Assembly: GCA_964362305.1 (NCBI GenBank)
Contig: CAYIDY010000005.1
Span: forward strand, 1-43,957
DNA length: 43,957 nt
Direction of reading: 5' to 3'
DNA from: an uncultured Candidatus Saccharibacteria bacterium
Lineage (GTDB): Bacteria > Patescibacteriota > Minisyncoccia > Phycocordibacterales > UBA2100
Below are positions 2,591 through 35,619 of the stretch, piece by piece. Position numbers and translations under genes: made by a program. The notes below the pieces were generated by a model. It was given only the letters and a program-made list of their open reading frames with translations. It searched no databases and was not told the origin of the DNA. Each line of letters starts with the position of its first letter. The first letter of the stretch is position 1.

Positions 2591-4786
2591 ATGCATGCTT
2601 CTTCTGATAGAAATAATCCAGACGCCAAGATTGGATTCGTAATCTACTACCCGTTCCAGTTTTACGTATATAAAAATGTCTACGAAAAGCTAGCGAATAA
2701 AGCGGAGTTCATCATCGACCTCGGTCCGTTCTATCCGACACCGCAAACGCCCGATGTGCTTCCTGCGATTGTCGCGCTTCTTGAAAAACATGGCGCTTGT
2801 TACCGCATTCTTTCCGATGACTTGTACGTCTCGAAATTGTCAGTCGAACGTTTTCTGGAGCGCTATGACACACTGGTTTCGGTATGGAGTCGTGGTTGTG
2901 TAGTCGTGGCTGACAACCAGAAACATCTTCAGGTGCACATGACGTATGGGGCAGGGAAGGAACTGACGACCTTTGATCTCTCTAAAGCACGGTTCGACCT
3001 CATACTCGCTTACGGCAAATATGACGATGCGTTCTATTCGCAGATTGCACATTCGGTCATCGTTGGGAATCCGAAATTTGACGACTGGTTCGCGGAGGCA
3101 GTAGATGACACAAGCATTGCTTCAACGGTGGCACGGCTCGATACAAAGAAAAAGACAGTGCTGTATCTTCCAACGCATAGTGACCTCTCATCTGTCGATG
3201 AGATTGCGCCTATGCTTGGGACGCTGCGCGACAAATACAACGTCATCGTCAAGCTTCACTATTACACAGCGCGTGAGGAACCCGCGCGAGTGACCGCACT
3301 CAGTGATTCAGGAGCAATAATCTGCGGTGACGACACCGATCTTTTGCCGCTTCTCGCCTGTGCAGACGTGGTCGTGAGCGACAACTCGAGCGCTATCTTC
3401 GATGCGATGCTTGCGGGGAAGTCTCTCATCGTCACAGATTTTCATGATGCTGATTTTTTTGATACCGCCCATCAAAAAATACGCGAGTATCGTCGCGGTT
3501 CGGCACGCGCTCTGACCTATTCGGGGAGCATCGAGCAGCGCATTAAATGTGACGGCACCGTCATGACCATCACTGCTGCAGCGGATCTTGAACAAGCTAT
3601 CGCGCGGATACTCGAGAATGATGATACGCGCGAAAAGTGCAATGCACTCGCAGAGCGATTGTTCTCGTATCGTGATGGGCGCTCCGGTGAGCGTGCCGCG
3701 GCTGCGATAGAAGAGGCGCGCGCGGATGAGCGAAAAGCAAAGCCGTTCCTTTATCATGCCCTCGCGCATTACACGGCACACACGCTCCGCCGCCCATTCC
3801 TAAATGTAACTCGCAGCGAGACCTTGCCCCTCGAGGCCTCGAAACTTCTCGCATGTAGTGTGATTCTTTTTCATGAACCGCTAACATCGGCTCTGGCATT
3901 AAAGCGCTCAGTTCGGGCGCTCGTCGAACAAGAGGGAGACGTCGAGATTGGTATTTTTATCGTGACGCAAGACGAAGAAGCGCTCGAGAAAGCGGGAGTA
4001 GCAGCGACCATTCTCAATCGAGGCGATAGGGTATGCGTGCATATCCATGCGATTCAACGAGGCGAGACACTTGGCACTTCACTTACGCGGCTCATGAGTT
4101 CTATACAACATGACATAGTGTTTTTCACAACGACGCTCTGCGCCGTTCGATCTCGGTGGATTTTGACTCTTGCACGTGAATTCACAACACACCCAGAAAT
4201 CGGTGGTGTCGGAGGATTTGCACGCATCCACTTCAAGGCTTCTTCAACGGTCGAGCGATTTCTTACCCACGAGCGACATCGACAGCTCGGTATTGAAGGG
4301 GAACAAGACCCGTACGTATCATCGGTCATGCTCATTACTCAGATTTTCAATCAAACACCAGCGGGGGATGTTCGTTCAATTGCGTATCGACGTGAGTTTC
4401 TTAAGGTGCTTCCCGCATGGATTGTCTCGCTAGCGCAACTGGAAGCGTACCTGAAGATTTTCGTGCTTCTCCAGAAACCACTCGCATTTGTCATGATGCC
4501 AACATTCCTGTTTGAACCACGAACGCTGCGTGAGGCGATGCGAGAATCGTATGGGCGCGCTCTGGCTCATGGTATGGCGCGGGATGTGATACGGACGAGG
4601 TGGGTGTATCGCGCCGTCTCGCTCTACTCTGTGGCGCGAGTCTGTATTCGATATGTACTACGAGGAAAGCTGCGTCTCGCTGGTATCGCACTCAGTGTTG
4701 GTATGGCCAAGTGGTGGGGAAGCACACGGGCACGATTCGGACTCATGTATCTGCGCATTCGACAATTTCAGCGCTGGTCGCGATGA
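2591..4786 (+). CDS. CDP-glycerol glycerophosphotransferase (TagF/TagB family) with degenerate C-terminal GT2-like domain
   Basis: GNPKFD, VLYLPTH, VKLH, DVVVSDNSSAIFD and DGRSGERAA motifs; adjacent to tagD; C-terminal part only loosely GT-A like. Confidence 0.75.
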   Translation: MHASSDRNNPDAKIGFVIYYPFQFYVYKNVYEKLANKAEFIIDLGPFYPTPQTPDVLPAIVALLEKHGACYRILSDDLYVSKLSVERFLERYDTLVSVWSRGCVVVADNQKHLQVHMTYGAGKELTTFDLSKARFDLILAYGKYDDAFYSQIAHSVIVGNPKFDDWFAEAVDDTSIASTVARLDTKKKTVLYLPTHSDLSSVDEIAPMLGTLRDKYNVIVKLHYYTAREEPARVTALSDSGAIICGDDTDLLPLLACADVVVSDNSSAIFDAMLAGKSLIVTDFHDADFFDTAHQKIREYRRGSARALTYSGSIEQRIKCDGTVMTITAAADLEQAIARILENDDTREKCNALAERLFSYRDGRSGERAAAAIEEARADERKAKPFLYHALAHYTAHTLRRPFLNVTRSETLPLEASKLLACSVILFHEPLTSALALKRSVRALVEQEGDVEIGIFIVTQDEEALEKAGVAATILNRGDRVCVHIHAIQRGETLGTSLTRLMSSIQHDIVFFTTTLCAVRSRWILTLAREFTTHPEIGGVGGFARIHFKASSTVERFLTHERHRQLGIEGEQDPYVSSVMLITQIFNQTPAGDVRSIAYRREFLKVLPAWIVSLAQLEAYLKIFVLLQKPLAFVMMPTFLFEPRTLREAMRESYGRALAHGMARDVIRTRWVYRAVSLYSVARVCIRYVLRGKLRLAGIALSVGMAKWWGSTRARFGLMYLRIRQFQRWSR

Positions 4787-4818
4787 AAGGGGAATATTCA
4801 ATGAGATACAATGCAGTG

Positions 4819-6249
4819 ATGAAATCTGCTCGGTCCCTAACGACTTCAAGAGTGCCACAGCACGGAATACGAGGACATAAGTCAAAGCGACAATTCACGG
4901 GCAAGACGTTTATTATCCGACCCTACGAGATTCGTCCAAAATCGTCAGAGATGCACTTCAGATATGAGACTGTCCTTCGCGATGGCAGCACGGTTTCATT
5001 TGTTGATGTCGTTACATTTCATGAAGCAACGCCTGATATGTGGCAGCGATTGCCGGCGCCACTCCTCGCGTCATGTGCTCAATCTTTGAGTATCATGCTC
5101 GGCATAAATTATTGGATGCCGCACGCAGCTCCTGAAATTCAAATTCAAGGATTTAGTCTTACAAAAGCGCAGGCAGAATTCTGGAACGAGCTCTATACAA
5201 AAGGCCTTGGTGAGTTTTTCTTCGTAGAGAATATTGATTTTCGAGGTCTCATCTCGTTTCCTTTTGACGAAACAGCTAGCGTTGAATCCGCTCGACTCCC
5301 ACATCTCTCAGGAACTTTACTTGCAAATGGTGGAGGCAAAGACTCTGTGGTATCTGCCGAGCTTCTCAGTGAACACGGTATTCCGTTTACGCTTTTCGAA
5401 TGGCGTAGTCGACAATCACAACAAACTATCGCTAAAGTCATCGGAGCGCCGTCGATCATGGTTACGCGGGAATGGGACCGGAGCCTCGCACGCATGTGTC
5501 TTGAGGAGCCATACGAGTTTGCATTCCCTTTGGTATCAACGCTTACTTTTTTCGCCACGATTGCCGCAGCGTTGCATGGGTTTCGTTTTATCGTACTTTC
5601 AAATGAGTCGAGTTCTGATTCGGGAAATGTCGAGTACTACGGTCTCAGTGTCAATCACCAGTGGAGCAAATCAGCAGAAGCTGAAGTGCTCATCCAGAAA
5701 TATATCAACGACTTCATATCGCCGGACATCATTCACTTTTCCTTGCTACGTCCGTTTACTGAACTCGAGGCCACGCGAAGATTTTCTAAGTACCCGTACT
5801 ATTTCAGCTTGTTTTCGAGCTGTAACAATTTGTTCGGCCCGAGGAGGGTGCCAGAAAAAATAGCAGGGCAGGGTTATTGGTGTGGCCGTTGCGCAAAATG
5901 TGTATTTATATTTGCGAGTCTCAGTGCATTTCTCAAACGCGACGTCGTGATTAACATCGTTGGGGAAGATCTCTATTCAGACTCCAATCTCATGCCAATG
6001 TTCCGAAGACTACTTGGACTCGAGGGAGACAAGCCGTTTGATTGTGTTGGCGTTTCTGACGAGATGATAGTGGCGATGCATGAGGCGAGAGCTACCGGAG
6101 CCTATGCCGATACACCTGCAATGGAACTTATTGATGAGGCGCTTCGAAGAAGTGGGAAGTCAATAGACGACATGCGTCGCGATGTCTTTTCTTTCAAACC
6201 CTCGCTGCCAATTCCAGAAGCATTTGCAAAGTGTCACGAGAAATCCTAG
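4819..6249 (+). CDS. MurL-like PP-loop ATPase (UDP-MurNAc-L-Ala-L-Glu epimerase family)
   Basis: GGGKDS, SNESS, VNHQWSKS, FSLLRP, SSCN, WCGRCAKC, KPFDCVG; start 4819 (TACAAT-6nt-ATG) or 4783 (ATGA overlap). Confidence 0.75.
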   Translation: MKSARSLTTSRVPQHGIRGHKSKRQFTGKTFIIRPYEIRPKSSEMHFRYETVLRDGSTVSFVDVVTFHEATPDMWQRLPAPLLASCAQSLSIMLGINYWMPHAAPEIQIQGFSLTKAQAEFWNELYTKGLGEFFFVENIDFRGLISFPFDETASVESARLPHLSGTLLANGGGKDSVVSAELLSEHGIPFTLFEWRSRQSQQTIAKVIGAPSIMVTREWDRSLARMCLEEPYEFAFPLVSTLTFFATIAAALHGFRFIVLSNESSSDSGNVEYYGLSVNHQWSKSAEAEVLIQKYINDFISPDIIHFSLLRPFTELEATRRFSKYPYYFSLFSSCNNLFGPRRVPEKIAGQGYWCGRCAKCVFIFASLSAFLKRDVVINIVGEDLYSDSNLMPMFRRLLGLEGDKPFDCVGVSDEMIVAMHEARATGAYADTPAMELIDEALRRSGKSIDDMRRDVFSFKPSLPIPEAFAKCHEKS

Positions 6250-6277: not shown

Positions 6278-7996
6278 TTAGGCGACATCGGGTCTCTCGA
6301 TGCAGTAGATTTCATTCGCGAATGTGGGCACGAAAAATCGTTTAGTACGTGGGTTATAGACGGGCCTATTTGTTATGCGCTCTGTAAATTGATAAAAGCT
6401 GCGCTCTGCCTTTGTCTCAGGGTCGAGTTCGGTGAGGCGGCCTGTATTGGCACCAATGAATATACTTTTTCCAATCAGGGTTGGAGAAGCGAATATGCGC
6501 GCACCGGTAGACCATCGCCATTTTTCATTAAAGGTATCGAGATCTATACAGTAGAGATTTTTATCAAGCGATGAGACGTAAACACGGTCGCCCACAATGA
6601 GCGGCGTACAGTAGAGGCCGAATTCTGCCTGAAAGCTAGAACGTACCTCTCCCGTTGCCCTATCGATGAAATAGAGGGAGCCATTCATATTTGCAACAAT
6701 CACGAGGTCTCGTTTTGCATCGTAGGCGATTGATTCTTTAATGTCATGGGCGCTAAATCCGGAATTGAGTTCATGCAGAGTAATTTCTCCGGTCGGCGTC
6801 TTCCAGAGCAGTGCGCCGGTCTTTGCATCAAAAAGGTACGCACAGCCATCGTTGCTGCCGATGATTACTTGTTGATGTTCGTGTATGTAGAGTGGTGTCG
6901 AATGAGTAAAGCAGGGCATCTCCGAGAAATGCCACTGGGTCTTTCCTGTTTTCAGATCAATCGCTGCAATCCCACCACGGCGACGCCAAAGACCGAATTC
7001 AAGACCGATAAAAAGGAGCCCAAGATCCGGGGCAATTGCTGGCGACGAGCCAATCCAATCGGCTTCCATGGACACCCAGCGTTTTTTTCCTGTTGCGGCT
7101 TCGAGTGCATAGACGTTTCCGTCATAGCCACCGAAATATACGACGCCCTCGTGTACGACCGGTGAGGAAAAGATGCCCTTACCTTTCGGATGGTGTCCAA
7201 TCTGATACTGCCACGCTACTTTGCCTGTATCTTGTTCGAGTGCCCAGAAGATGCCGGTGTCGGACCCTACGTATAGACGCGTATCATCGATAACGGGGTT
7301 CGATTTTGGAACAACATACTGATACGAAGCCCTTCCCGCAATGAATTTCCACCTAATTGAATAATTGCTCGGAATCGGAGGAGAATCGCGCTGTGAGATG
7401 TTCTTTGTGCCAAGGGCAGGGAAATCGTTCAGTTCAAAGAGGGAGGTTACCGTGATGCCTTTCTCTGCAAAATACGTGTAGTAATCCAAGTCTCTGAAGC
7501 GCACGAGTGTCCAGATTTCAGTGACCTTTTGCCCAAGGGACTCAAGAATCTCAACTTGCTTACGCGATGTGTGTCCCGAGTTTATGAGGTCATCAAGCAA
7601 GATTATGGGTACGCCGGGGCGCATCTCTCCTTCAATCATGCGCATGAGCCCATCTTTCTTGCGAGACTTTCGGATGAAGAACCCTGACATGTCCTTCACG
7701 CCAAATGCGTGTGCTCCAGCGACGAACGCAGCGACGAAAGGGATTCCCGCAGTCTCCATTCCCCCTAACTGCACGGGCGTTTTCGTGGCGCGGGATTCCC
7801 AAAATAAATGTGTCAGGTCGTCCAAAATTGGTGCGGAAAGCTCTATGGCACGAATATCAAAGAGCCAGTGTCCACCAACTTTCCTGTCCGCTTTTTTACT
7901 GGCGATAGGGGTTGCCTCAGTATTGCGAACAAATGAGCGAGTTTCAATGGCCTGTTTGACGCGTGCGAGCCGCGCAGTTCGCTCAGTGTCGTTCAT
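6278..7996 (-). CDS. Orotate-phosphoribosyltransferase-like domain fused to PQQ/BamB-like beta-propeller
   Basis: N-terminal GGMETAGIP, FFIRKSRKKDG and PRPP loop ILLDDLINSGHT; C-terminal repeats such as VYFGGYDGNVYALEAATGKKRW; no signal peptide. Confidence 0.85.
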   Translation of the reverse strand: MNDTERTARLARVKQAIETRSFVRNTEATPIASKKADRKVGGHWLFDIRAIELSAPILDDLTHLFWESRATKTPVQLGGMETAGIPFVAAFVAGAHAFGVKDMSGFFIRKSRKKDGLMRMIEGEMRPGVPIILLDDLINSGHTSRKQVEILESLGQKVTEIWTLVRFRDLDYYTYFAEKGITVTSLFELNDFPALGTKNISQRDSPPIPSNYSIRWKFIAGRASYQYVVPKSNPVIDDTRLYVGSDTGIFWALEQDTGKVAWQYQIGHHPKGKGIFSSPVVHEGVVYFGGYDGNVYALEAATGKKRWVSMEADWIGSSPAIAPDLGLLFIGLEFGLWRRRGGIAAIDLKTGKTQWHFSEMPCFTHSTPLYIHEHQQVIIGSNDGCAYLFDAKTGALLWKTPTGEITLHELNSGFSAHDIKESIAYDAKRDLVIVANMNGSLYFIDRATGEVRSSFQAEFGLYCTPLIVGDRVYVSSLDKNLYCIDLDTFNEKWRWSTGARIFASPTLIGKSIFIGANTGRLTELDPETKAERSFYQFTERITNRPVYNPRTKRFFVPTFANEIYCIERPDVA

Positions 7997-8058
7997 TCGG
8001 AAAAGTATACTCGATTTTCTCTATCGCGCACCGCTTCTTTCTCAACCCAGTCGATGTG

Positions 8059-8772
8059 TTATGGCTTGCACAAGGTTACGGTGTGGAGTGGCTGCTCTTC
8101 ATCGCTATCAAGGTCTAGTAGCTCGATGATTGCTTCGTCTTTGAAACCGGCATACGGGCGCGCTTGAATGTTGAGTGCTGTTGCCAAAAGTAATATATTT
8201 TCGCTCATATGTCCGGCTTCGATGAGGGCGTGGAGGTATGCAAGGTCTCCGTATTTGGCAGACGAACGATGCCAGACGCTGGTAAATATGACCAGAGAGG
8301 AGAGAGATAGTGATACAGGATGCGGAGCTATGGTTTTGAGGTTGAAATTTTCTGGAAGTGTCACTAAACGCTCGAGCGTGTGAGTGGTCGGATTGTAATG
8401 AAAAACGGCAGGGGACTCTGATTCGAGAGTCATAGATATTAGATATGTCTCGACGGGGTAGAGTGCTCCACCCGAAGGGTAATTCCGACTCTCTCGATCA
8501 CGGCGTTTGCGCAAGCCATGCCCTAACAGGGTTCCAATTTCTTGTAGAGACAGTGCGATTTCAGGGTTTCCGGAGATACCCGAAGCACGATTCGTGAGGG
8601 ATTCCTCTAAGGTGGTGGATAGTGTTTCGGGCTCAGGAAGAGGAATCTGCGGCATGCGCGAATAGACTTTATGTGTTCCTCTCGGTACGTTGTCGGGATG
8701 ATGGGTCGCCCCGCGGCGCGTTTTGAGCGAGGAGCGCAAATCTGCATGCAGTTGTGAGAGAAAGTTCTTCAT
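8059..8772 (-). CDS. SagB/ThcOx-family FMN-dependent azoline dehydrogenase
   Basis: RNYPSGGALYPVETY, KYGDLAY (Lys-Tyr motif), EAGHMSENILL; ATGA overlap with ycaO stop. Confidence 0.92.
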   Translation of the reverse strand: MKNFLSQLHADLRSSLKTRRGATHHPDNVPRGTHKVYSRMPQIPLPEPETLSTTLEESLTNRASGISGNPEIALSLQEIGTLLGHGLRKRRDRESRNYPSGGALYPVETYLISMTLESESPAVFHYNPTTHTLERLVTLPENFNLKTIAPHPVSLSLSSLVIFTSVWHRSSAKYGDLAYLHALIEAGHMSENILLLATALNIQARPYAGFKDEAIIELLDLDSDEEQPLHTVTLCKP

Positions 8773-10208
8773 GAAAAAGGGTGAGGCTCATCAGCAAAAG
8801 GTTCACTCCGCGGCGTATAGCCCAAAATGGTCGGTAGTTCTTTCCAGCGTTTTCCGCCGAATGCCTGGTCGTTTTCAAAAAGATGAGTCCATTGCAATTG
8901 CGGCATGACGACCATCTCGATATGGAATGGGGTAGGGTTGGTGGGAGAGTGTCCCAGGGAGACGGAGACGCAATCGATTTTCTTTTCTGCACACCAGTTT
9001 ACGATGCGTGCCAAATGCTGCTCCTCATCATCTGTATCCCACAGTGACAGTTGCGCTTCTATTTCGGGTCCTGCGATTAGGAATTCAAGCCGGGGCGAAT
9101 TTTCAGGGGCACCCCAATAATAGAGTCGTTCTCTGTGGCCGACGGCACTGGCCGGGGTTTTCGTGTCCCATACATTTCCCTCACGACTCCATAAGCGATG
9201 CGCTCGGAATGCGCGAAATGTCTCTGCTGCAGCCTTCTCGATGCATTTTGTAAGAGAGCGGTGCGCTCTGATGCCAATGGTAAAGCGCGGGACAATGCCG
9301 CTCTCATCTTCAAAAATGACGGCGATAGCGTGAGTGGGAGCGTCTGTTGGCATTTTGATAACATGCATCTTTAGTCGGTACCGTTCGCATGAATCTATAA
9401 GTTTGGCGAGCGCAGGGTCGAGTTTTCTCAAAGAGGTCAAGGAATAGCGGGGAAGCGTGAGTTGGTTGAGCCACATGACCATGTACGCCTCACGTTCTAG
9501 AATCTCATTAGCGCCTGCGCATCGTGCGCCCGAAAGGCTCGGCCAGGTTGCGAGGCCATTGGTTATTATGGGTCTAATCAAAGGCTCTTCTTTGGCACGT
9601 TTAGAGAATGGAATTCTGATACCGCTTACCACCTGAGCCGGGACGTAGGTGGGTGCATCGAGGACGAGCGAGCGTCCCTGAATCCAGGTGAATTTTGTAT
9701 TTATGTCAAAGTGGCGCTTCGGATTTCCCGAGCGCTGGGCATCGGTGTATCCCGAGAAATCAGCAGGGTTAAGCGCAAGCCCCTTTTTTTGAATTTCAGA
9801 AAACGTAGCTCTGGTCGGGTCTATGAAATAGTCTTCCTTCATAAACCAGATGTAGCGCTCCACTACTTCAGCGAGCGCTGCATACAGGGCGTCAGAGTTG
9901 CTGCTCCACGAAGCCCCCCCTGTTCGATGACTCGTTTTGTCATTACAGTACGCCGACCAATAGTGGATGCGCGGCTCGTCGGGCAATTGATTATTACGAT
10001 GAAAGTTCTTCAGAAGACCCTTTTCTTTTAGCAGTTTTGCGAGAGCGAGAGGTTTCGAAAGCGCTACGCTTTCTGGAAAATCGCGAACATCACGTACAAC
10101 ACGCACGCCCAAACGACGCTCAATGAATGCGAGGAAGGAGGCGGTGGCGCGTTCTGTTATAGTTGAATCTTGAGAATTTTCTGCGGCAGAAACTGCGTCA
10201 ATCAGCAT
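8769..10208 (-). CDS. YcaO-family cyclodehydratase
   Basis: AALAEVVERY, TNGLA...ANEILERE ATP-binding motifs, YVPAQVV, C-terminal EPHPFS; start placed at 10208 (TGaTATACT-7nt-ATG). Confidence 0.93.
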   Translation of the reverse strand: MLIDAVSAAENSQDSTITERATASFLAFIERRLGVRVVRDVRDFPESVALSKPLALAKLLKEKGLLKNFHRNNQLPDEPRIHYWSAYCNDKTSHRTGGASWSSNSDALYAALAEVVERYIWFMKEDYFIDPTRATFSEIQKKGLALNPADFSGYTDAQRSGNPKRHFDINTKFTWIQGRSLVLDAPTYVPAQVVSGIRIPFSKRAKEEPLIRPIITNGLATWPSLSGARCAGANEILEREAYMVMWLNQLTLPRYSLTSLRKLDPALAKLIDSCERYRLKMHVIKMPTDAPTHAIAVIFEDESGIVPRFTIGIRAHRSLTKCIEKAAAETFRAFRAHRLWSREGNVWDTKTPASAVGHRERLYYWGAPENSPRLEFLIAGPEIEAQLSLWDTDDEEQHLARIVNWCAEKKIDCVSVSLGHSPTNPTPFHIEMVVMPQLQWTHLFENDQAFGGKRWKELPTILGYTPRSEPFADEPHPFS

Positions 10209-10318
10209 GAGCGGGAGTATATCATGGGCTGTTTTTCTGTATAAAATGCAGAACGCGCTATTCGTTATCCACATGAACAGCCTTTCGAGTTGCACCGTAC
10301 GGCATGATAATGAGCTCA

Positions 10319-10657
<339 letters not shown>

Positions 10658-10660
10658 TAT

Positions 10661-11803
10661 ATGCCTGACAAAGTTATAACTCCTATAGGGACAGGGGGGG
10701 CGCAAAAAAACTCGATGTCGCGCCTCGTTGTACTTCTGGTCGCCATTCTTGCAATCGCTGCAGTAGTTTCATTTGCATGGTCGCTCATTCCTGAAAGATA
10801 TAAAACATGGCAATCGTCATCTCACCTCTGGGACACCTATGCCGCGATGCGCGACGGTAATCTGCAAAGTGCACTTGCCGCATCTCAATCTATTCAAGCA
10901 GATCCGAATGTCAGCGCTGATGAAAAAGCGCGAGCGATACTCCTCACCCTGGGTGCGGGGAGTCGCCTCAGCGGCGACGCAAGTGCAATACTTGCTGATG
11001 TCCAAAACTTGAAACAGTCGATCATAAACGATGAAGTCTCAGTTCCGGTTCGCGCGCGTTTGGTGAGTGCTCTCGCAGCTCAATATGCTCTTTCGGGAAA
11101 TGACGCTGCAGTGTTTGCTGAGATGTTCAAGACCGAGCCATTTAGTACGTACCTCGTCCCAAGGGACATTGACCAATCAATTCACAATCTATATGAATGG
11201 TCGTACACAATCTCCCCAACAGCTCTTGCCACGATAAACCTCGCCCGCTGGTACAGCGAGCCGGTGCTTCCACGCACTAGTCAGCTTACATGGACGATGA
11301 CTGATGAGAGCGCAAAACGTGCGGAAGGGTATCTTTTAGAGGCTGACGCTCTTGTGGCGGAAGAAATGGCAGGCGATACCGAATTCATCAATGGCAGCCA
11401 GTACTTTTGGTTTCGATACTGGCGCGCGAATGTTGTAGCGCGACTCGCAGACAAGCTTGGTGGATCATATCGAGAGGAGTATCGAGCTGGCTTCGACGAA
11501 CTCATCGCATTCATGCTCGCGCATCCTGCGGTCCTTGCGAAGGAAAATCTTCCATTCGCACGTTTCCAGTATGCGATATGGCTCTTGCAGATAGAAGATG
11601 ATAAAGTCGCGGCTACCCAGCAGCTCGATATGTTGGCGCAAGAATTGTCGAAGATGCCATACCTAGACTCTAATCCTTTCGTGCTATCAGTGAGAGATGC
11701 GTATGCCAACTCTCAAGAGGGTGGGCTCTGGAACTTTATCGGGGTCCTTGCAAAGCTTTCTCCAAAATTTGAAGCTCAAATCAGGTCCTTGTTCGGAATA
11801 TAA
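10661..11803 (+). CDS. Membrane-anchored alpha-helical hypothetical protein
   Basis: 380-aa ORF with one N-terminal TM (LVVLLVAILAIAAVVSFAWSLI), Ala/Leu-rich helical pattern, 3 nt after precursor stop. Confidence 0.75.
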   Translation: MPDKVITPIGTGGAQKNSMSRLVVLLVAILAIAAVVSFAWSLIPERYKTWQSSSHLWDTYAAMRDGNLQSALAASQSIQADPNVSADEKARAILLTLGAGSRLSGDASAILADVQNLKQSIINDEVSVPVRARLVSALAAQYALSGNDAAVFAEMFKTEPFSTYLVPRDIDQSIHNLYEWSYTISPTALATINLARWYSEPVLPRTSQLTWTMTDESAKRAEGYLLEADALVAEEMAGDTEFINGSQYFWFRYWRANVVARLADKLGGSYREEYRAGFDELIAFMLAHPAVLAKENLPFARFQYAIWLLQIEDDKVAATQQLDMLAQELSKMPYLDSNPFVLSVRDAYANSQEGGLWNFIGVLAKLSPKFEAQIRSLFGI

Positions 11804-11843
11804 AGTGTACGTAATCTCCTGGCTTTTCGAGGCTCTACGCCGT

Positions 11844-12677
11844 ATGAAATTCTCACTCAACTATCGAGAGGGCAGTTCCACCGTACCTACCGGCGTCGCC
11901 GTCTTTTTAGTAGCGCTCTTCATCTGTCTCTTTATCCCAAGTATCCGAAATACAATATTCGCAAAATCAGTCTTCATATATGAGGATGTTGCGCTCCTCC
12001 TCGCTCCTTCAGCAGATCGTGCGTATGCATATGGCACGCGCCATTTCAATGCCACGGACCCAGCGCACTACAATCTCGCTCGAGCAGAAAAAATGTACAC
12101 GCTCGCGCTTAGCATGGATCCTGCGTTTCCATACACGCATCATCAGATTGCACGCATCGCATTTCTGAAAGGGGATCACGCAAGAGCGCTGGTACACATT
12201 AATGAAAGCATCGATAGAGATCCCGACCCCTCATCTTTCTACATACGTGGCCTCATCAAGGGATTTGTGGGCGACTATGAAGGGGCTGCGCGAGACTATC
12301 GAACATTTTTGAGAGAAAAACCGACGAGTTGGGCAGGGATTAACGACTATGCGTGGGTACTCTTGAAAGCGGACCGACCGCTCGAGGCCTTAGTCGCAGT
12401 GGATTGGGGACTTATCTATTCGCCAGAAAATGTGTGGCTCTATAACAATAAAGCGACGGCCCACATGGAATTAGGCCAATACGAACTTGCCTACGATGCC
12501 GCGCTCCGCGCGCAGGAAATGGTTGGAGGTGTATCGGAGGAAGAATGGCTGCGTGCATATCCGGGGAACGACCCGCTTATTGCAGCGGAAGGCATAGAAG
12601 CACTAAAGAACGCTATCGAAATCAATATACACACCATATCCCTCGCAATCGAAAAGCAGGAAAATGATGTGCCATAA
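11844..12677 (+). CDS. Membrane-anchored TPR protein
   Basis: TPR-like units (AEKMYTLALSMDP, ALVHINESIDRDP, SFYIRGLIKGFVGDYEGAARDY, LYNNKATAHMELGQYELA); N-terminal TM; start uncertain. Confidence 0.8.
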   Translation: MKFSLNYREGSSTVPTGVAVFLVALFICLFIPSIRNTIFAKSVFIYEDVALLLAPSADRAYAYGTRHFNATDPAHYNLARAEKMYTLALSMDPAFPYTHHQIARIAFLKGDHARALVHINESIDRDPDPSSFYIRGLIKGFVGDYEGAARDYRTFLREKPTSWAGINDYAWVLLKADRPLEALVAVDWGLIYSPENVWLYNNKATAHMELGQYELAYDAALRAQEMVGGVSEEEWLRAYPGNDPLIAAEGIEALKNAIEINIHTISLAIEKQENDVP

Positions 12678-12684
12678 TATTCAT

Positions 12685-13932
12685 ATGGAACGAGCGGGAC
12701 GTTTCGGCGAGATGGGAAAGAAAGAAGTTGTAGCGATTATTCTCGCAGTCGCCGTCTTTTTCGGACTCTTCGTGGGTGCGGCAGAGCGCGCGTCACTCGC
12801 ATCAGCCGAGACTCAATTTGTTGAGTATTCAAAATCAGGGATGCAAATAGTTCCTGCATCGTGTGAGTCGAATCCGCCGTACGAACACTACGTTGGAGAA
12901 TGTGGTTCAACTGGCGGTGGCGGTGGGCCAGCGGCTTGCACAATCTCTGCGTCCCCTGGGACAATCAACGCTGGGCAGTCTTCGACACTGTCTTGGACGA
13001 ATGCTCCCAGCTCGGTTTTGTATACCGTTACCTCACGCACTATTTCTCCGACGGTGGGCTCAGTATCGTCAGATTCCGGTAGCATTTCGGTTTCTCCGGG
13101 AGTGACTACGCAGTATACCTACACCGTCAATTACTCAAGCTTATTTGGCGCTCTTGGGAGCCCAACGAGAACATGTGTGACGACAGTAGTCATCAATCCA
13201 GGACCGCCACAGTGTCCGCCCGGTCAGTGGTGGAACGGCACACAGTGTGTTGATAATCCGCCCGGCTCATGTCCCAACGGCCTCGACATAAGCCAGTACC
13301 CATCCTGTACCTGCCCGTCCGGATACACGCAGCAAGGAAACTCATGCGTCCTGACATCAGTATGCCCCAACGGTCTCAATATTTCCCTATATCCGACATG
13401 CACGTGTCCTGTAGGACAGTTCCAGAGTGGATCGATTTGCATCTCAAGCTGTCCTAACGGTCTCAATATTTCTCTCTACCCAACGTGCTCGTGTCCTCAA
13501 GGACAAACACAAAGCGGAGACATTTGCGTCGGCCAATGCACCCCAATCTATTTCTGCCAAGGCAATGACTTGTACTTCCGCAGTGCACAGTGCACAGAAA
13601 CATTCCAAGAAGCATGTGCCTATGGCTGTGCGGGAAGTGCGTGTTTGCCTGCGCCGTCGGGAACTGCAGACATACGCGCAGTTCCGCCACTCGTAAAACC
13701 GGGCCTGACGACAGTTATTTCTTGGAGCACGACCAATGTACAGGCTGGTAGCTGCGCAGTGACGGAAAACAACCCGACCATCATCGATTCGTGGACCGGC
13801 GCTTCAGGCTCGCAACCATCAAGTGGAATTACACAGCAAACTATTTATACATTGCGCTGTACGGGTTTAAACAATCAGCCCATTAGTGACAGTGTTGTGG
13901 TGAACATTGTTCCAGATTTTGAAGAGGAGTAA
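12685..13932 (+). CDS. Secreted/surface protein with Ig-like segments and Cys-rich tandem repeats
   Basis: N-terminal TM/signal; CTISASP..SSTLSW and TTVISW..IYTLRC Ig-like patterns; three CPNGL repeats; TGcCATAAT-6nt-ATG start. Confidence 0.8.
   Translation: MERAGRFGEMGKKEVVAIILAVAVFFGLFVGAAERASLASAETQFVEYSKSGMQIVPASCESNPPYEHYVGECGSTGGGGGPAACTISASPGTINAGQSSTLSWTNAPSSVLYTVTSRTISPTVGSVSSDSGSISVSPGVTTQYTYTVNYSSLFGALGSPTRTCVTTVVINPGPPQCPPGQWWNGTQCVDNPPGSCPNGLDISQYPSCTCPSGYTQQGNSCVLTSVCPNGLNISLYPTCTCPVGQFQSGSICISSCPNGLNISLYPTCSCPQGQTQSGDICVGQCTPIYFCQGNDLYFRSAQCTETFQEACAYGCAGSACLPAPSGTADIRAVPPLVKPGLTTVISWSTTNVQAGSCAVTENNPTIIDSWTGASGSQPSSGITQQTIYTLRCTGLNNQPISDSVVVNIVPDFEEE
13270..13527 (+). repeat. 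Three tandem 26-aa Cys-rich repeats CPNGLxISxYPxCxCPxGxxQxGxxC
   Basis: Units begin at 13270, 13363 and 13450. Confidence 0.9.
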
Positions 13933-13980: not shown

Positions 13981-14110
13981 ATGCAACAGGCGCAGCAAGG
14001 TTTGCTTCTAGGACTCCTTCTTACCCACTCTTGTGGAGGCCTTGCCTGTGTCTAGATAAAAAACAAATGTAGATACAAACGAGCCCTCCACAAGAGGGCT
14101 CTTTTCTTTT
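13981..14110 (+). promoter_or_regulatory. Leu-rich leader peptide transcription attenuator
   Basis: Leader ORF 13981-14055 MQQAQQGLLLGLLLTHSCGGLACV; 14028-14039 perfectly complementary to 14085-14096; terminator GAGCCCTC/GAGGGCTC plus TTTTCTTTT. Confidence 0.75.
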
Positions 14111-14425: not shown

Positions 14426-15163
14426 ATGGCGAACATTCTTGTAATTCAATTTCGCTCTGATGCGCGTGCACTTGAGCTTGAAGAACGAGCCATACGTCGC
14501 GTACTTGCAGATACGAACGTTGATGTAATGTGTAAAAACGCGCTCGAGGGGGAAATTGATTGGTCGGTGCCCAAATCAGAAGTGACAGGGTACAGCGGTG
14601 TCGTTCTCGCGGGCTCGGGAGAATTGTATTTCGACGGTGGTCACGCGGAGGAACACGAAGGGCGTGTCATTACCAGTAGAATCGCGCGAGAAGCGAAGCC
14701 GTTTGCAGAATATCTTTTGGAACACGAAATTCCAACACTGGGCATTTGTTTTGGACATCAGCTACTTGGGTATGCAGCGGGAGTGAATGTCGGACATTCG
14801 GTCGTAGAGAGTAAGACCGGGACGCAGACCGTCGAACTGACCGACGAGGGCGCCCTCGACCCGTTGTTTGCCGGATTACCGAGAACATTTCCTGCACAGT
14901 ATGCGCATAAAGATGTACTCTTTGATTTGCCACAAGGCGCAACCATTCTTGCGAGGAACAGTGATAGGTGCCGCTTTTCAGCGCTCCGCTATAGTCCCAA
15001 AATGTATAGCGTGCAATTTCATCCTGAGCGAAGGAAAGAGGATCTCATCATGAGTCTGAGCTGGTTTCCCGAATATTTGCCGAGCGGAGTAAAGCCAGAA
15101 GATGTGTTCGCGGAAACGAAAGAATCAGAGCGGGTAATGAAAAATTTTGCGGCGATGATATAA
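14426..15163 (+). CDS. Class I glutamine amidotransferase (stand-alone, GMP-synthase-like domain)
   Basis: LGICFGHQ nucleophile elbow and QFHPE. Confidence 0.88.
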   Translation: MANILVIQFRSDARALELEERAIRRVLADTNVDVMCKNALEGEIDWSVPKSEVTGYSGVVLAGSGELYFDGGHAEEHEGRVITSRIAREAKPFAEYLLEHEIPTLGICFGHQLLGYAAGVNVGHSVVESKTGTQTVELTDEGALDPLFAGLPRTFPAQYAHKDVLFDLPQGATILARNSDRCRFSALRYSPKMYSVQFHPERRKEDLIMSLSWFPEYLPSGVKPEDVFAETKESERVMKNFAAMI

Positions 15164-29499: not shown

Positions 29500-29710
29500 C
29501 TATTCAGGTCCCCGAAAGGGGATTGGGCCTGGATTTCCCATCAAGGGAACAGTGGCTAGTGCAAGAGTGCTAACTCGGAATCCTCCGTAATCGGGATAGC
29601 CAGTGATTGCTGGTGAAAGTCCGCCTCTGGCGGAGAAGTAAGGTGGCACCGTGTCGGAAAGACGCCCTTACATCGCGACAAACTGTCGCGGCGTGAGGGC
29701 GTTTTTTATT
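29500..29710 (+). ncRNA. T-box riboswitch (Trp-specifier candidate) with terminator
   Basis: AAGG-TGGCACC-GTGTC...GACGC-CCTT antiterminator; overlapping terminator ACGCCCTTAC...GTGAGGGCGT plus T run; CCGTAA stem IIA/B-like motif; TGG at 29524-29526. Confidence 0.88.
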
Positions 29711-29718
29711 TGTATTGT

Positions 29719-31076
29719 ATGCAACTACCAAAAATTAAAATAGGTCAGAAACCGACATACGTGAAGGTCGCCGAAGATGTCGACTTCTTTGCACTGTTTC
29801 AAAAAATCGAGCCGCAGTTCGAGACCTGTTTTGTATTCGAGTCACTGGGCGAAGAGGGAAAGTTTGCACGCTATTCAATCATCGGGTTTGACCCAGCACA
29901 TATTGTATCTGCGCGTGGGAAAACGCTTACGTATGACGGCAAAAAATACGTCGTCGAGAATCCATACTACGCACTCCGTGACATTCTGCCGCCCGAGACA
30001 ATCGCCCGCAATTATTCGGGAGGCCTCATAGGATATCTGAGCTACGAAGCGGTGAATTACATGGAATCTGTGGATGTGAAGGTGCACAAAGATTTCGACC
30101 AGTTTCTTTTCGGCGTGTATTTGGACGGATTGGTTTTCGACAAACTCACCAACGAACTTTTCTATTTCTTCTTCGATGTGGACCGAAGCGCGATGCTAAA
30201 AACCATACTCAAAGAGCCTGTTCGAAGCGGAGACTTAACGGTGAAGTTTCTTCGCGATGGTATGAGCAAGGAGGAGCACGAAGTGGTAGTAGAGCGAGTA
30301 AAAGAACACATTCGCGCGGGGAACACGTTTCAATGCGAGGTTGGCTTCAAGAGCGAATACGAAGTGAAAGGGGACACACTGCGCATTTACGAGCGATTGC
30401 GCGAGATAAATCCGTCACCGTTTATGTACTACCTGAAATTCGGTGCGAAGCGAATCATCGGCGCGAGTCCTGAATTATTGTTCTCGCTACGCGATGGCGA
30501 AATGACAACGCGCCCGTTAGCGGGGACTATTCGCCGAGGAAAAGACGAACAAGAAGACCAAAAACTTGCACGCGAACTCCTGAGCGACCCGAAAGAGCGG
30601 GCAGAACACACCATGCTCGTTGATATGCATAGGAACGACATAGGGCGCGTTGCGCGTTTCGGCACTGTGCGCGTGAAAGACCTCATGACCGTGAAGCGAT
30701 TCAGTCACGTACAGCACATGTCGAGCGAAGTCACGGGGATTATTCGCCCGGGCAAAGACATGTTTGACGGCCTCGCTAGCCAGTTTCCGATGGGCACCAT
30801 CTGCGGCACGCCGAAAGTGGAGACGATGAAAATAATTGATGCGAATGAGCCCGAAGCGCGCGGTCCATACGGTGGTGGGGTAGGGCAGTTTGGGTTTAAT
30901 GGCGACTGTACATTTGCCCTCACGCTCCGCTCCATGTTTGTAAGCGGCGAGAAAGCGTACACGCAAACGTGCGGTGGAATTGTCTACGATTCAGAGCCGG
31001 AGAAAGAATATGAGGAAATTAGAAATAAGTCGGCGGCGATGAAAAAGACACTCTCCGTTTTTGAGAAAAAAGACGT

Positions 31077-31080
<4 letters not shown>
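29719..31080 (+). CDS. trpE: Anthranilate synthase component I
   Basis: NPSPFMY, GASPE, RPLAGT, KERAEHTMLVD, RGPYGGGVG; followed by trpG and trpD. Confidence 0.92.
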
Positions 31081-31669
<589 letters not shown>

Positions 31670-31673
<4 letters not shown>

Positions 31674-32689
31674 CACCCGCCGAAATAGTACGAAAGCTCG
31701 TGGAAAGAAAAGATTTGTCTTCACGTGAGGCGAGTGATTTTCTTGGCGGCGTCATGGACGGCTCTGTTTCGCCCACAATGACGGCGGCGATTTTGACGGC
31801 GCTACGAATGAAGGGGGAGAGTACTAATGAAGTTGTTGGATTTGTAAGCGCAATGCGCGCGCATATGGTGAAAGTCAGTGCCCCGGGAGCGATGGACGTG
31901 GTGGGTACCGGAGGTGATGGCAGCAATACATTCAATGTTTCAACAACCGCGGCGTTTGTTGTCGCGGGGGCAGGCGTCTTCGTCGCAAAACACGGCAATC
32001 GCGCAGCAAGTAGCAAGTGTGGCAGCGCGGATGTGCTCGAAGCACTCGGCGTGAACATTCAACTTTCAAAAGAGCAGGCGGAGACGGTATTCAAGAAGGT
32101 TGGATTCGTATTTATGCTCGCACCGCTTTTCCATCCGTCGACGAAGAATGTCGCTGCGGTGCGCAAAGAGTTAAAAATCCGAACCATTTTCAATGTGCTC
32201 GGCCCTTTGGCGAACCCAGCGGGAACGACGGTGCAGCTAACCGGCGTACCGGATGAGGCTTCGGCGAAAAGGCTTGCGTCCGTCGCGGCTAAACTAGGCT
32301 ACAAACGAAATCTTCTCGTGACGTGTGCCGGAATGGATGAGGTAGGACTGAATACACCAACCGTTGCATATGAAGTGAAGGGTACGAAGGTGCGACGATT
32401 CTCCATCAATCCACGGCAGCTCGGTTTCAAAAAAGTCCCGCCAAAGACACTTTTGGGTGGCGACGCAAAAGAGAACGCAGCAATACTAGAGGCGATTTTA
32501 AAGGGGGAAAAAGGTCCGCGACGGGACATGGTGGTCTTAAACAGCGCGTGCGCGCTCTACACCGCAGGGAAGGCACGAACCATTCGAGAGGCGATACCGC
32601 TCGCTATCCACAGTATCGATAGTGGCGCCGCGTACGGTATACTTTCCAGCTTGCGGCGAGAAACACAAAAGCTTGCCCAGAACGCATGA
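31670..32689 (+). CDS. trpD: Anthranilate phosphoribosyltransferase
   Basis: DVVGTGGDG, KHGNRAASSKCGSAD, RTIFNVLGPLANP. Confidence 0.96.
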
Positions 32690-33963
32690 GCTCCATTTCA
32701 CTCACACCACAAGCCTCTCCCGTAGAGGCAACCGTCGATATTCCAGGCTCCAAGAGTTACACCAATCGTGCACTATTAATAGCCTCGCTTACGCCGGGAG
32801 TCGTTGAAATTGTTCGCCCCCTCATTAGTGATGACACCGAAGCAATGTTGTCGTGTTTGGGCGCGCTCGGTATCCAGAGCTCGCGAACCTATAGCGGCAT
32901 TCGTATTAGCAACGATATCAGTGCAACAAAAGCAGGCGCGATTGATCTCGATGCACGTATCTCTGGCACGACAATCCGGTTTATCCTCGCGTTGTCGTGC
33001 GTGCTTCCCGGCACAAAAACAGTGCATGGAGAGGCGCCGTTGAACAAGCGCCCTATAAAAGATTTGGTAGACGCATTAAGGCAGCTGGGGGCAGAAATCG
33101 AATATACGGGTCAAGAAGGGTTTCCGCCGCTTCGCGTCTCCTCTTCCAAACTCCGCCCGGGCACCGTGCGAATGTCGGGCTCAATAAGCAGTCAATATCT
33201 TTCTGCATTACTCATGGTCGCGCCTCTCATCGGAGAGGTAATTATCGAAGTCGAAGGCGAGCAAATTTCAAAGCCGTATATTGATATGACCATTGAGACG
33301 ATGCGTGAGTGCGGCGTATCTGTTGTGAACGATAGCTACAAGCGTTATGTGATTCCAGCGGGGCACCAGTACTCTGTTCGAGAGTTTTTCATTGAGGGGG
33401 ACGTATCAAGTGCCGGGTATTTTGCGGCGATTGCAGCCATAACGAAATCAACAATAACGCTCGCACATATGAATCCCAAGTCTCTTCAGGCGGATATGGG
33501 GTTTTTGAAGATTCTCGAACAAATGGGCAACGAGATTGTCTACGAAGAAAGAGCAATTACCGTTGTGGGAAAAGGAGTGAAAGCGATGGAGGTTGATATG
33601 GAGCACTGCCCTGACCAAGCGCAGACGCTCGCGGTACTTGCCGCGTTTGCGCCGGGAAAGACAGTAATCAGCGGTGTACGCTCGCTGCGCGTTAAAGAAA
33701 CAGAGCGCGTAAAGGCACTCGAGCAAGAGCTTGCGAAGATGGGTATCAAAACCGAATCGACGAATGACGTGCTCACAATCTACGGTGGAAGCCCCCAGGC
33801 GGCAACGATAGACACCTATGGCGACCATCGCATGGCCATGTCATTTGCCGTTGCCGGAGCTGTGCTTCCCGGTATGCGTATCAACAACCCCGAAGTTGTG
33901 GGCAAGACATTTCCTGATTTTTGGGACAAACTACAGAGTATTGGCATAGCAATACATTCATGA
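32686..33963 (+). CDS. aroA: EPSP synthase
   Basis: PGSKSYTNR, SSQYLSALL, LRVKETER, DHRMAMS. Confidence 0.96.
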   Translation: MSSISLTPQASPVEATVDIPGSKSYTNRALLIASLTPGVVEIVRPLISDDTEAMLSCLGALGIQSSRTYSGIRISNDISATKAGAIDLDARISGTTIRFILALSCVLPGTKTVHGEAPLNKRPIKDLVDALRQLGAEIEYTGQEGFPPLRVSSSKLRPGTVRMSGSISSQYLSALLMVAPLIGEVIIEVEGEQISKPYIDMTIETMRECGVSVVNDSYKRYVIPAGHQYSVREFFIEGDVSSAGYFAAIAAITKSTITLAHMNPKSLQADMGFLKILEQMGNEIVYEERAITVVGKGVKAMEVDMEHCPDQAQTLAVLAAFAPGKTVISGVRSLRVKETERVKALEQELAKMGIKTESTNDVLTIYGGSPQAATIDTYGDHRMAMSFAVAGAVLPGMRINNPEVVGKTFPDFWDKLQSIGIAIHS

Positions 33964-34481
33964 ACATCATACTTATCGGAATGCGCGGAAGTGGAAAATC
34001 GACGATTGGAAGTATGCTCGCGCAGCGTTTGGGTAAAGATTTCCGCGAACTCGATGCGGAAGTGGAAGAGCTTGAAGGAATGACCATCAGAGAAATGGTC
34101 GAGAAGCACGGATGGGATTATTTTCGAGACAGGGAGACCGAAATCGCGCGCGATGCAGGGAAGAGCGATAACGCCGTCGTTTCCACAGGTGGAGGCGTCA
34201 TCATTCGAATGGAAAATATAGAGGCGCTCAAGCAGAATGGGATTTGCATATATCTACGAACACCGCTGCATGTCCTCCTTCAGCGTATCGGCGGTGAAGC
34301 ATCAAAGCTTCCACGACTTACCAATGAGACGAGTATCGCGGAAGAGATGAGCAAGGTGATGGAAGGTCGTGCGCCGCGCTATGAGGCCGCTGCGGAAGAA
34401 ATTGTGGACACGGAATTTCAGTCGGTTGAACAAGTTGTCGAAGAAGTGTTGCACAGACTTCAAAAGAGGCATATAGAGTAG
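33960..34481 (+). CDS. aroK: Shikimate kinase
   Basis: [10 protein letters not shown]-loop, [14 protein letters not shown]; ATGA overlap with aroA. Confidence 0.95.
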
Positions 34482-34483
34482 AC

Positions 34484-35569
34484 ATGGCGGGGAACTCTTT
34501 TGGGCAACTGTTTCGCATCACTACCTTCGGTGAGTCGCATGGCGGTGCGGTGGGGGTGGTGGTTGATGGCTGCCCACCCGGGATTGAAATTACCGAAGAA
34601 GAAATACAAGTACAGCTCGACCGCCGAAGACCCGGGCAGAGTCACATCACAACGCCGCGAAAAGAGGCGGACACCATAAAGATTCTTTCTGGGTATTTTG
34701 AAGGAAAGACAACCGGCACGCCGATGCTTCTTATCGCATACAACGCCGACACGCGCTCAGAGGATTATCACGATTTGATGCAGGCGTATCGTCCGTCGCA
34801 TGCCGATTACACGTATGAAGCAAAATACGGTTTTCGTGATTGGAGAGGAAGTGGCCGCGCATCGGCGCGCGAGACTCTGGCGCGAGTTGCGGCTGCAGCA
34901 ATAGCACAAAAGTATTTAAAGGAAAAAGCAGGCATCGAATTCTTGAGCTACGTTGAGCAGGTAGGGGACATTAAAGCGAACGTGGATTTTGAAACTGTGC
35001 AGATGAAAGATATCGAGTCCAACATCATTCGCTGCCCGGACCAAAAGACAGCAGAGAAAATGATTGCGCTTGTCGAGAAAGTAAAAGCAGAAGGCGATTC
35101 CATCGGCGGCGTCATTTGTGGCGTGATTCGCAATGTTCCCGCAGGGCTTGGAGAGCCGGTATTTGATAAATTAAGTGCGGACTTAGGCAAAGCAATGCTC
35201 TCAATTAATGCTGTCAAAGGCTTTGAAATCGGTTCAGGATTTGAAGGTACGAAGCTGCGTGGCAGTCAGCACAATGATCCCATGTACACCGATGCCTCGG
35301 GTAAAGTGCGCACGAAAACGAACAACGCAGGTGGCACCGTCGGGGGTATTTCAAATGGCGAAACCATCCACTTCCGCGTCGCATTCAAACCGGTCTCGAC
35401 AATCGGCAAAGAGCAAGACACGGTCACGCGCGACAAAAAGGCGACCAAGCTCGCCGCCGCCGGCCGTCACGACCCCTGCGTTCTCCCGCGTGCAATCCCG
35501 ATAGTGGATGCGATGTCAGCGCTTGTAATAATGGACCACTATTTGCGCAACAGGGCGCAAAATCTGTAA
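34484..35569 (+). CDS. aroC: Chorismate synthase
   Basis: TFGESHG, RPSHAD, SARET, GRHDPC. Confidence 0.97.
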
Positions 35570-35619
35570 AGATTTGGCCCCACCCTCCAGCATCACGCTC
35601 AGAGAATGGGGCCGGGAAC

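Follow-up and report, generated by a model that had tools for sequence, protein, structure and literature searches.

A conserved YcaO/SagB locus with a phosphoribosyltransferase-propeller fusion and a precursor-like peptide in a Patescibacteria genome

What does a YcaO cyclodehydratase modify in a very small genome in which none of its known leader-binding partners is found, and do the genes around it belong to the same pathway? The question is raised by a locus at 6278-13932 of a 43,957-nucleotide stretch of DNA from an uncultured bacterium (the window). The locus encodes a stand-alone YcaO, a SagB-family dehydrogenase and a fusion of a phosphoribosyltransferase (PRTase) to a beta-propeller, PRT_prop. 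These three genes diverge from a gene for a small Gly/Cys/Ser-rich peptide, PEP, which is followed by genes for a helical-repeat protein of 380 amino acids (p380), a membrane-anchored TPR protein and a Cys-repeat protein. The system is real and conserved. Judged by its sequences, we read it as a new variant of azole-type biosynthesis of peptides made by ribosomes and modified after translation (RiPPs) within a wider, undescribed exported-peptide cassette. With moderate confidence it is taken to be a RiPP-type maturation system built around PEP as a small exported peptide, with azole-type chemistry supplied by YcaO and SagB.

The source assembly measures 0.915 Mb and is 90.6% complete, and all whole-genome negatives given below refer to it. 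The closest named relatives of the source genome are Candidatus Kaiserbacteria and Paceibacterota, within the Patescibacteria or Candidate Phyla Radiation (CPR), which bears out the small genome expected in the initial annotation of this DNA. The window stretch is present in four DNA runs, all from one groundwater study; no RNA run is listed for it, which has no bearing on expression.

Recurrence and layout of the gene set

Recurrence was followed in two sets of genomes. The kin set comprises 61 genomes and was searched with the YcaO, PRT_prop and TPR proteins of the window. For the wider set, species genomes were scanned with an alignment of PRT_prop; the scan yielded 221 relatives, from which 79 loci centered on PRT_prop were kept, nearly all of them labeled Patescibacteria. 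Loci L015-L025 share six contigs with L026-L104 (L016=L056, L017=L064, L019=L046, L020=L101, L022=L070 and L025=L077), and these pairs are not independent.

YcaO occurs in 10 of the 61 kin genomes and PRT_prop in 11, with both present in nine. Fourteen encode the TPR protein, among them each of the 12 with YcaO or PRT_prop. At ten further kin loci SagB adjoins 10 of 11 YcaO genes, and the TPR protein is present at all ten, PEP at nine and PRT_prop at seven. The 79 loci of the wider set contain YcaO in 50 cases, SagB in 51, p380 in 50, the TPR protein in 47 and PEP, by either of two filters, in 55; SagB accompanies YcaO in 49 of the 50. The full seven-gene set of the window is present in 16 of the 79, and none of the 32 loci with complete 9-kb flanks is missing all of YcaO, PEP, p380 and the TPR protein. 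Synteny is kept despite rearrangements of gene order and strand. Since the same genes recur together in relatives, their arrangement is far beyond chance. The cassette is rare and patchy, as an even sampling of the phylum turned up PRT_prop in just 3 of 401 genomes, yet it is concentrated in the source genus (10 of 36 genomes).

Co-occurrence of YcaO, SagB, the PRTase-propeller and the peptide was the check for which the initial annotation had asked; it recurs in relatives, where the membrane proteins accompany these genes as well. A peptide gene near homologous YcaO genes, set beforehand as the point on which the proposal could be refuted, is present at 9 of 10 kin loci and at 38 of the 50 wider loci with YcaO.

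The source genome carries a second cluster of this kind (L023; contig C14, ~14.6-20.8 kb), where SagB-YcaO is divergent from an 83-amino-acid PEP with the motif AHADAP. It also encodes a p380-like protein, a DsbA-like thioredoxin (CPYC), a membrane-anchored rhodanese and a TPR protein. There is one PRT_prop only in the genome, and none beside this second cluster.

The features of the window locus are as follows.

6278..7996, minus strand: PRT_prop, PRTase/propeller fusion, 572 amino acids (Pribosyltran, weak; TIGR00336; PQQ_2; Beta-prop_ACSF4)
8059..8772, minus strand: SagB-family flavin mononucleotide (FMN) dehydrogenase, 237 amino acids (TIGR03605; Lys-Tyr)
8769..10208, minus strand: YcaO cyclodehydratase, 479 amino acids from ATG 10208 (PF02624); reading frame open to TTG 10319
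10209..10303, no strand: divergent intergenic region between ycaO and PEP (sequence inspection)
10304..10657, plus strand: PEP, precursor-like peptide, at most 117 amino acids (open reading frame and family alignment)
10661..11803, plus strand: p380, membrane helix and helical-repeat domain, 380 amino acids (AlphaFold model)
11697..12677, plus strand: open reading frame of the membrane-anchored TPR protein, likely starting at ATG 11844 (TPR Pfam families)
12664..13932, plus strand: Cys-repeat surface protein, 422 amino acids, likely starting at ATG 12712 (signal-like N-terminus)
14081..14101, no strand: terminator-like bidirectional hairpin closing the plus-strand operon (pattern match only)

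All of the genes lie where the initial annotation had placed them. It had described ycaO and sagB as translationally coupled, and coupling is indeed plausible given their 4-nt overlap (8769-8772). The spacing is 62 nt between sagB and PRT_prop and 3 nt between PEP and p380. ATG 10208 is favored as the ycaO start because homologs are 470-500 amino acids long and align from residue 35-38 of the open reading frame; the alternatives are ATG 10274 and TTG 10319, the latter making ycaO and PEP overlap. The divergent gap of about 110 bp proposed earlier thus holds with ATG 10208 (95-110 bp) and disappears with TTG 10319. This region contains a promoter-like site on the minus strand at 10245-10216, which is a consensus match only. 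Candidate starts for PEP are ATG 10304, 10310 and 10319.

Opposite PEP, two long antisense open reading frames (129 and 115 amino acids) occupy 10316-10788 of the minus strand. They are open because of low-complexity repeats, and the conserved frame is that of the plus strand. A glutamine amidotransferase gene at 14426-15163 was excluded from the system, as it is located beyond the terminator and the kin loci lack a counterpart.

Enzymes, peptide and surface proteins

The YcaO protein matches PF02624 in a Pfam scan (1.6e-34). A profile of 54 family members finds its best solved relatives in TruD (1.1e-36), MusD (1.2e-36) and LynD (5.3e-34). The alignment reaches the last residues, with the family's P-H-P-F matching the end of TruD. 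Thioamide-type archaeal YcaOs match the profile in part only, E. coli YcaO is distant, and McbD is a distant but detectable relative (3.3e-08). The AlphaFold (AF2) model has a mean confidence (pLDDT) of 92.3 and aligns with LynD (4v1v) in Foldseek at a template modeling (TM) score of 0.70. Among the 54 sequences E114, E117, R118, E235 and P475 are invariant, and H476, P477 and F478 reach at least 90% conservation (residues counted from the 10208 start). By profile and fold, the protein is predicted to be an azoline-forming type of cyclodehydratase, with the cyanobactin heterocyclases TruD and LynD as its nearest relatives. Its first ~60 residues form a short low-confidence beta-alpha-beta-alpha extension in the model, and neither the model nor the family scan detected an E1-like or RiPP recognition element (RRE) domain. 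The SagB protein scores 101 bits against TIGR03605 (cut-off 78), and its Lys-Tyr pair, K173/Y174, is at least 90% conserved in 52 sequences.

Several expectations of the initial annotation stand at this point, namely the Pro-rich YcaO C-terminus (EPHPFS), the Lys-Tyr pair of SagB and the lack of an E1/ThiF-like partner and of TfuA. Models for ThiF (PF00899), SagC (TIGR03603), PqqD (PF05402) and TfuA gave zero matches in the whole assembly; the same models do give matches in control genomes, and divergent RREs can evade the ThiF, SagC and PqqD models. The exporter, protease and lanthipeptide dehydratase that it had reported missing are likewise not to be seen, as no ABC exporter, protease or lanthipeptide dehydratase family was found among the 29 window open reading frames that were scanned, out of 46 of at least 90 amino acids.

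PRT_prop consists of a phosphoribosyltransferase domain resembling orotate phosphoribosyltransferase (OPRTase; residues ~1-215) and a PQQ/BamB-type beta-propeller (~216-572), with no signal peptide recognizable by eye. The Pribosyltran match is weak, and the pyrE model TIGR00336 (8.8e-12), PQQ_2 (3.8e-31) and Beta-prop_ACSF4 (2.8e-43) are also matched. The loop that would bind phosphoribosyl pyrophosphate (PRPP), LLDDLINSGHT, and the flexible loop, RKSRKK...IEG, align with human OPRT (2wns), and D135, N139, R109, R112, E122 and G123 are invariant in 72 sequences. PRT_prop scores 45-48 bits against TIGR00336, far under the cut-off of 106.8, and, against the models for BamB and PQQ dehydrogenases, 95 bits with TIGR03300 (cut-off 285) and 75 with TIGR03075 (cut-off 480). 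Public labels of the fusion are 'PQQ-binding-like beta-propeller repeat protein', 'BamB/orotate phosphoribosyltransferase' and 'hypothetical'. The genome encodes a PRPP synthase. It has no pyrE above the cut-off, the PRT domain being the best pyrE-like match at 48 bits. PRT_prop was considered as the pyrE of the cell and rejected on account of its low score and the fused propeller.

PEP looks like a precursor: its leader and motif are conserved, and its core is hypervariable. It runs from a basic N-terminus through a hydrophobic helix with a G-F pair and a linker to VAQADAP and a Gly/Cys/Ser tail, which in the window holds 8 Cys and a poly-Asp end. In an alignment of 46 sequences the family motif is A-[H/Y/Q/R..]-A-D-[A/V/T]-P, with Ala-Asp at least 90% conserved and the motif placed ~13-25 residues past the hydrophobic helix. 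The K/R bias is N-terminal in 38 of the 46 and reversed in two. Tails are 21-75 residues long, consist almost entirely of Gly, Asp, Ser, Cys, Thr and Ala and have no positional conservation. At least two PEP copies are present in L017/L064, L020/L101 and L058, and under a looser screen in L081. In the source genome the combination of helix and A-x-A-D-A-P picks out the two PEP genes plus one unrelated open reading frame. The motif was for that reason rejected as a generic signal-peptidase site, and by its sequence distribution it is family-specific. The general secretion route proposed for PEP in the initial annotation is unproven, the motif lying well past the helix and being specific to the PEP family.

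The G-F pair in the hydrophobic helix (window 10349-10393) is kept across the family. Its conservation suggests a specific membrane helix contact and not a generic signal sequence. A type IV prepilin reading of G-F was rejected by eye, as the Gly comes after hydrophobic residues and position +5 is not a Glu.

The composition of the tail varies with the enzymes nearby. The median number of tail Cys is 4 in loci with YcaO (n=35) and 1.5 in loci without it (n=12; Mann-Whitney p=0.004), and the Cys+Ser+Thr fraction is 0.33 versus 0.16 (p=7e-6), both tests ignoring relatedness and being indicative only. Asp-rich tails with 0-1 Cys occur among the loci without YcaO (L028, L029, L034 and L041).

In L032 (5527-9001) an iron enzyme of the MbnB/TglH/ChrH family (PF05114, 9.1e-68) and a small upstream open reading frame lie between PEP and PRT_prop, the two occupying the exact position that YcaO-SagB has in the window, and the PEP of this locus carries a Cys-x-Cys-x-Cys stretch. 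The protein upstream of the enzyme belongs to no Pfam family. An MbnB/TglH-family (DUF692) enzyme was found neither in the window cluster nor in its genome by family scans and tblastn with the L032 enzyme. A stand-alone radical SAM enzyme sits between PRT_prop and PEP in L074 (10436-11821). It is homologous to that of L084 (5169-7742), where the radical SAM domain is fused to a propeller of the PRT_prop kind. L036 encodes a pre-ATP-grasp-domain protein and a methyltransferase. In L027, L063 and L080 there is an AMMECR1-plus-toroid protein, and in L039 (8992-12240) PRT_prop itself forms a fusion with an AMMECR1 domain plus an alpha/alpha-toroid-like region. From these gene contents YcaO/SagB look like an exchangeable module, being not found in 29 of the 79 loci, replaced by an MNIO enzyme in L032 and undetected in two kin genomes. 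The relation of tail Cys/Ser/Thr to YcaO, the swap in L032 and the other inserted enzymes support PEP as a RiPP precursor.

The AF2 model of p380 (pLDDT 90.1) has a transmembrane helix at residues 18-41 followed by an all-alpha, TPR-like helical-repeat domain, and a fold search gave weak helical-repeat matches alone, with E-values of at least 0.01. No residue is invariant in 54 sequences, which points to a binder and not an enzyme. The Cys-repeat protein belongs to no Pfam or NCBIfam family and is the least conserved member, with homologs in 31 of the 79 loci. DsbA-like genes are found in 15 of the 79 loci and rhodanese genes in 17. A multipass membrane protein of ~430 amino acids is encoded between PEP and PRT_prop in 26 of the 79 (e.g., L029:7624-8916). 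Its N-terminal motif is conserved and contains Cys, it matches no Pfam family, and tblastn found no match to it in the genome of the window.

Proposed mechanism and rival explanations

From the computed gene content, conservation, synteny, motifs, folds and correlation of Cys with YcaO we infer a scheme for the chemistry, export, cleavage and role. In the cytoplasm, the stand-alone YcaO would use ATP to cyclodehydrate Cys, and possibly Ser/Thr, of the PEP tail to azolines, which the FMN-dependent SagB would oxidize to thiazoles or oxazoles. PRT_prop would be a third, co-transcribed cytoplasmic component; as a guess, its propeller may dock the peptide in place of the absent E1/RRE partner while the OPRTase-like domain binds PRPP or a nucleotide. 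The basic and hydrophobic N-terminal segment of PEP would carry the modified tail across the membrane, with A-x-A-D-A-P as the likely recognition or cleavage site. The two membrane-anchored helical-repeat proteins and the Cys-repeat protein, which share an operon with PEP, would take over the product at the cell surface or keep it there. As to the role, a metal-binding or polyanionic, bufferin-like surface peptide is favored, though not strongly, over a classical antibiotic. The initial annotation had proposed a minimal azole pathway. Its RiPP genes, its peptide and the absence of the partners stand, and general secretion, as noted above, does not yet; nor is the pathway minimal, PRT_prop, the two helical-repeat proteins and the Cys-repeat protein being conserved parts.

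A number of observations weigh against this scheme. The YcaO protein scores 149 bits against the NCBIfam SagD model TIGR03604, under the cut-off of 219, and no leader-binding partner was found by family models in the genome. Most azole-forming YcaOs require such a partner. YcaO/SagB were not found in 29 of the 79 loci, and PEP was not detected with the filters used in 12 of the 50 loci with YcaO. With the window protein as query, no YcaO was detected in two kin genomes that do encode PRT_prop and the TPR protein, namely G020 (93% complete) and G033 (98% complete). Several tails linked to YcaO hold 0-1 Cys. The extracytoplasmic DsbA-like and rhodanese neighbors hint, by their predicted functions, at free thiols outside the cell and not at fully heterocyclized Cys. 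A hydrophobic signal-anchor is normally inserted co-translationally, which leaves little time for modification in the cytoplasm. Finally, in L039, L042, L044 and L024 a similar N-terminal module heads proteins of 260-540 amino acids, so that a protein may serve as the substrate in certain lineages.

Part of this evidence can be turned toward PRT_prop. The system might be defined by PRT_prop and PEP, with PRT_prop performing the class-defining step, e.g., a PRPP-dependent modification or nucleotide-gated docking, and with YcaO/SagB as optional tailoring enzymes. Loci such as L026, L049, L051, L092 and L095 keep PRT_prop by PEP, p380 and TPR with no YcaO within the flanks, and G020 and G033 have PRT_prop and the TPR protein with no YcaO found. 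Neither the PRPP loop nor the OPRT-like flexible loop varies, the propeller-radical SAM fusion of L084 and the PRT_prop-AMMECR1-toroid fusion of L039 are on record, and the genome has a PRPP synthase and no pyrE above the cut-off. Still, the tie of PRT_prop to PEP is one of gene context, and no type I PRTase is known to act on peptides. The second YcaO-SagB-PEP cluster of the source genome has no adjoining PRT_prop, and G050 has YcaO, SagB and the TPR protein without PRT_prop. On balance this explanation is unlikely. A further reading, possible but doubtful, would make the fusion a RiPP maturase of a new kind, its propeller being a previously unrecognized precursor-recognition domain replacing RRE/E1 and its OPRTase-like domain doing PRPP-dependent peptide chemistry. 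The propeller would then couple to different catalysts, the PRTase here and radical SAM in L084, and YcaO/SagB, MNIO and radical SAM enzymes would swap as interchangeable tailoring modules. The fusion, together with the membrane-type leader bearing A-x-A-D-A-P and the two helical-repeat proteins, would mark a new class of exported modified peptides in Patescibacteria.

The remaining explanations concern the reaction, the substrate and the neighborhood itself. YcaO might carry out other chemistry on PEP, such as ATP-dependent leader cleavage, formation of azolines only, or thioamide or amidine formation. Among the solved relatives MusD ranks second, its PDB entry (7u58) names an ATP-dependent peptidase activity in the title, and the cluster has no protease gene. 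The coupling of SagB to YcaO in nearly every locus, however, is sensible only if azolines form; TfuA is not found in the genome and the tails are enriched in Cys/Ser/Thr, which together leave such chemistry distinctly improbable. It is more improbable again that the true substrate is a larger exported protein, be it the Cys-repeat or a Gly/Cys-linker protein, with PEP as another membrane or surface component. The accessible text of PMC11252979 describes an MNIO-modified protein that bears a signal peptide. Proteins of 263-291 amino acids in L039 and L042 combine a transmembrane helix with a motif like AHADTP, a stretch of Pro, a Gly/Ser/Cys linker and a folded domain, and proteins of 300-540 amino acids in L024, L044 and L039 have an N-terminal segment rich in Gly/Asp/Cys. 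Yet a short peptide adjoins ycaO in the window and at most loci, and the Cys-repeat protein is the least conserved member of the set. A merely coincidental neighborhood, in which YcaO/SagB/PRT_prop have nothing to do with the membrane-protein operon, is very improbable, as synteny outlasts changes in order and strand, the phyletic patterns match and PRT_prop, for all its rarity, adjoins these genes.

Among the larger proteins just mentioned, those encoded at L039:3614-4405, L042:3473-4348, L044:4941-6479 and L024:7203-8822 share the order of helix, Gly/Ser/Cys/Asp linker and folded domain, and two of them (L039 and L042) have the AHADTP-like motif and the Pro run. No Pfam family was found for these Gly/Cys-linker proteins.

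Elsewhere in the window, 29710-39825 carries a complete set of tryptophan pathway genes (trpE, G, D, C, F, B and A) together with aroA, aroK and aroC, most of them above or near the NCBIfam cut-offs, in a CPR genome of 0.9 Mb. At 2591-6249 a TagF-like glycerophosphotransferase (PF04464, 731 amino acids) overlaps a long open reading frame for a MurL-like epimerase (NF041275, 234 bits; cut-off 700). A TagF-like transferase also adjoins the cluster in L020/L101, L026 and L027. At 904-2139 lies a gene for an arylsulfotransferase-like protein (PF05935, 1.2e-17) whose N-terminus has a hydrophobic segment.

Significance and comparison with known systems

CPR bacteria have tiny genomes, and their interactions with hosts and metals are little known. 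A conserved and horizontally patchy cassette for what is probably a modified exported peptide is thus a candidate means of attaching, handling metals or competing. What the system offers to RiPP enzymology is an azoline-type YcaO with none of the known partners, a propeller that may be a new substrate-docking domain and is linked to an OPRTase-like domain, and a natural swap of the heterocycle-forming module (YcaO/SagB versus MNIO) on one precursor family.

Among the closest known systems are the thiazole/oxazole-modified microcins and linear azole-containing peptides (LAPs), exemplified by McbBCD of microcin B17. Shared features are the YcaO, the SagB-type FMN dehydrogenase with its Lys-Tyr pair and an adjacent precursor with a Gly/Cys/Ser-rich core. 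In contrast, the window genome has no E1-like/McbB or SagC partner, and there is no ABC exporter, immunity gene or protease among the scanned open reading frames; the membrane-type leader and four extra conserved genes are further differences. The cyanobactin enzymes TruD, LynD and MusD are the closest solved relatives by profile and fold, through the C-terminal Pro-rich end. Their chains are 775-784 amino acids long, compared with 479 here, and their N-terminal half is the E1-like/RRE domain. The YcaOs of bottromycin biosynthesis are also stand-alone enzymes and need no E1-like partner. They work in another chemical context, with no coupled SagB and no propeller protein.

Related genes are already on record in CPR bacteria. 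The accessible text of Sharrar et al. 2020 (PMC7298704) gives 110 antiSMASH LAP clusters in 93 CPR genomes, 89 of them with a nitroreductase, and describes YcaO adjoining nitroreductase in Parcubacteria and Microgenomates, together with a peptidase and an 84-amino-acid precursor. Unlike the present cassette, these clusters are described, supplements aside, with no mention of a PRTase-propeller, TPR proteins, a membrane-type leader or the motif. A literature search, supplements excluded, returned nothing that describes a propeller, PRTase or membrane-type leader in a YcaO system. The initial annotation had suspected an architecture not seen in characterized clusters; the architecture may indeed be new, and the pairing of YcaO with nitroreductase in LAP clusters of CPR bacteria is not, going by the accessible text of PMC7298704.

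The text of the MNIO survey paper mentions Patescibacteria, propeller and phosphoribosyl zero times. Bufferins and other MNIO peptides, as presented in the accessible text of PMC11626156 and PMC12452194, are Cys-containing precursors with an N-terminal export signal that are modified in the cytoplasm and then exported. The present cassette differs from them in its partner genes, in the lack of an MNIO enzyme in the window and in the chemistry, which here would yield YcaO/SagB azoles. It resembles them in its Cys-containing, precursor-like peptide and in the use of an MbnB/TglH-family enzyme by L032. PEP does have an N-terminal K/R bias and a hydrophobic helix, but its A-x-A motif lies well past the helix and is specific to the PEP family.

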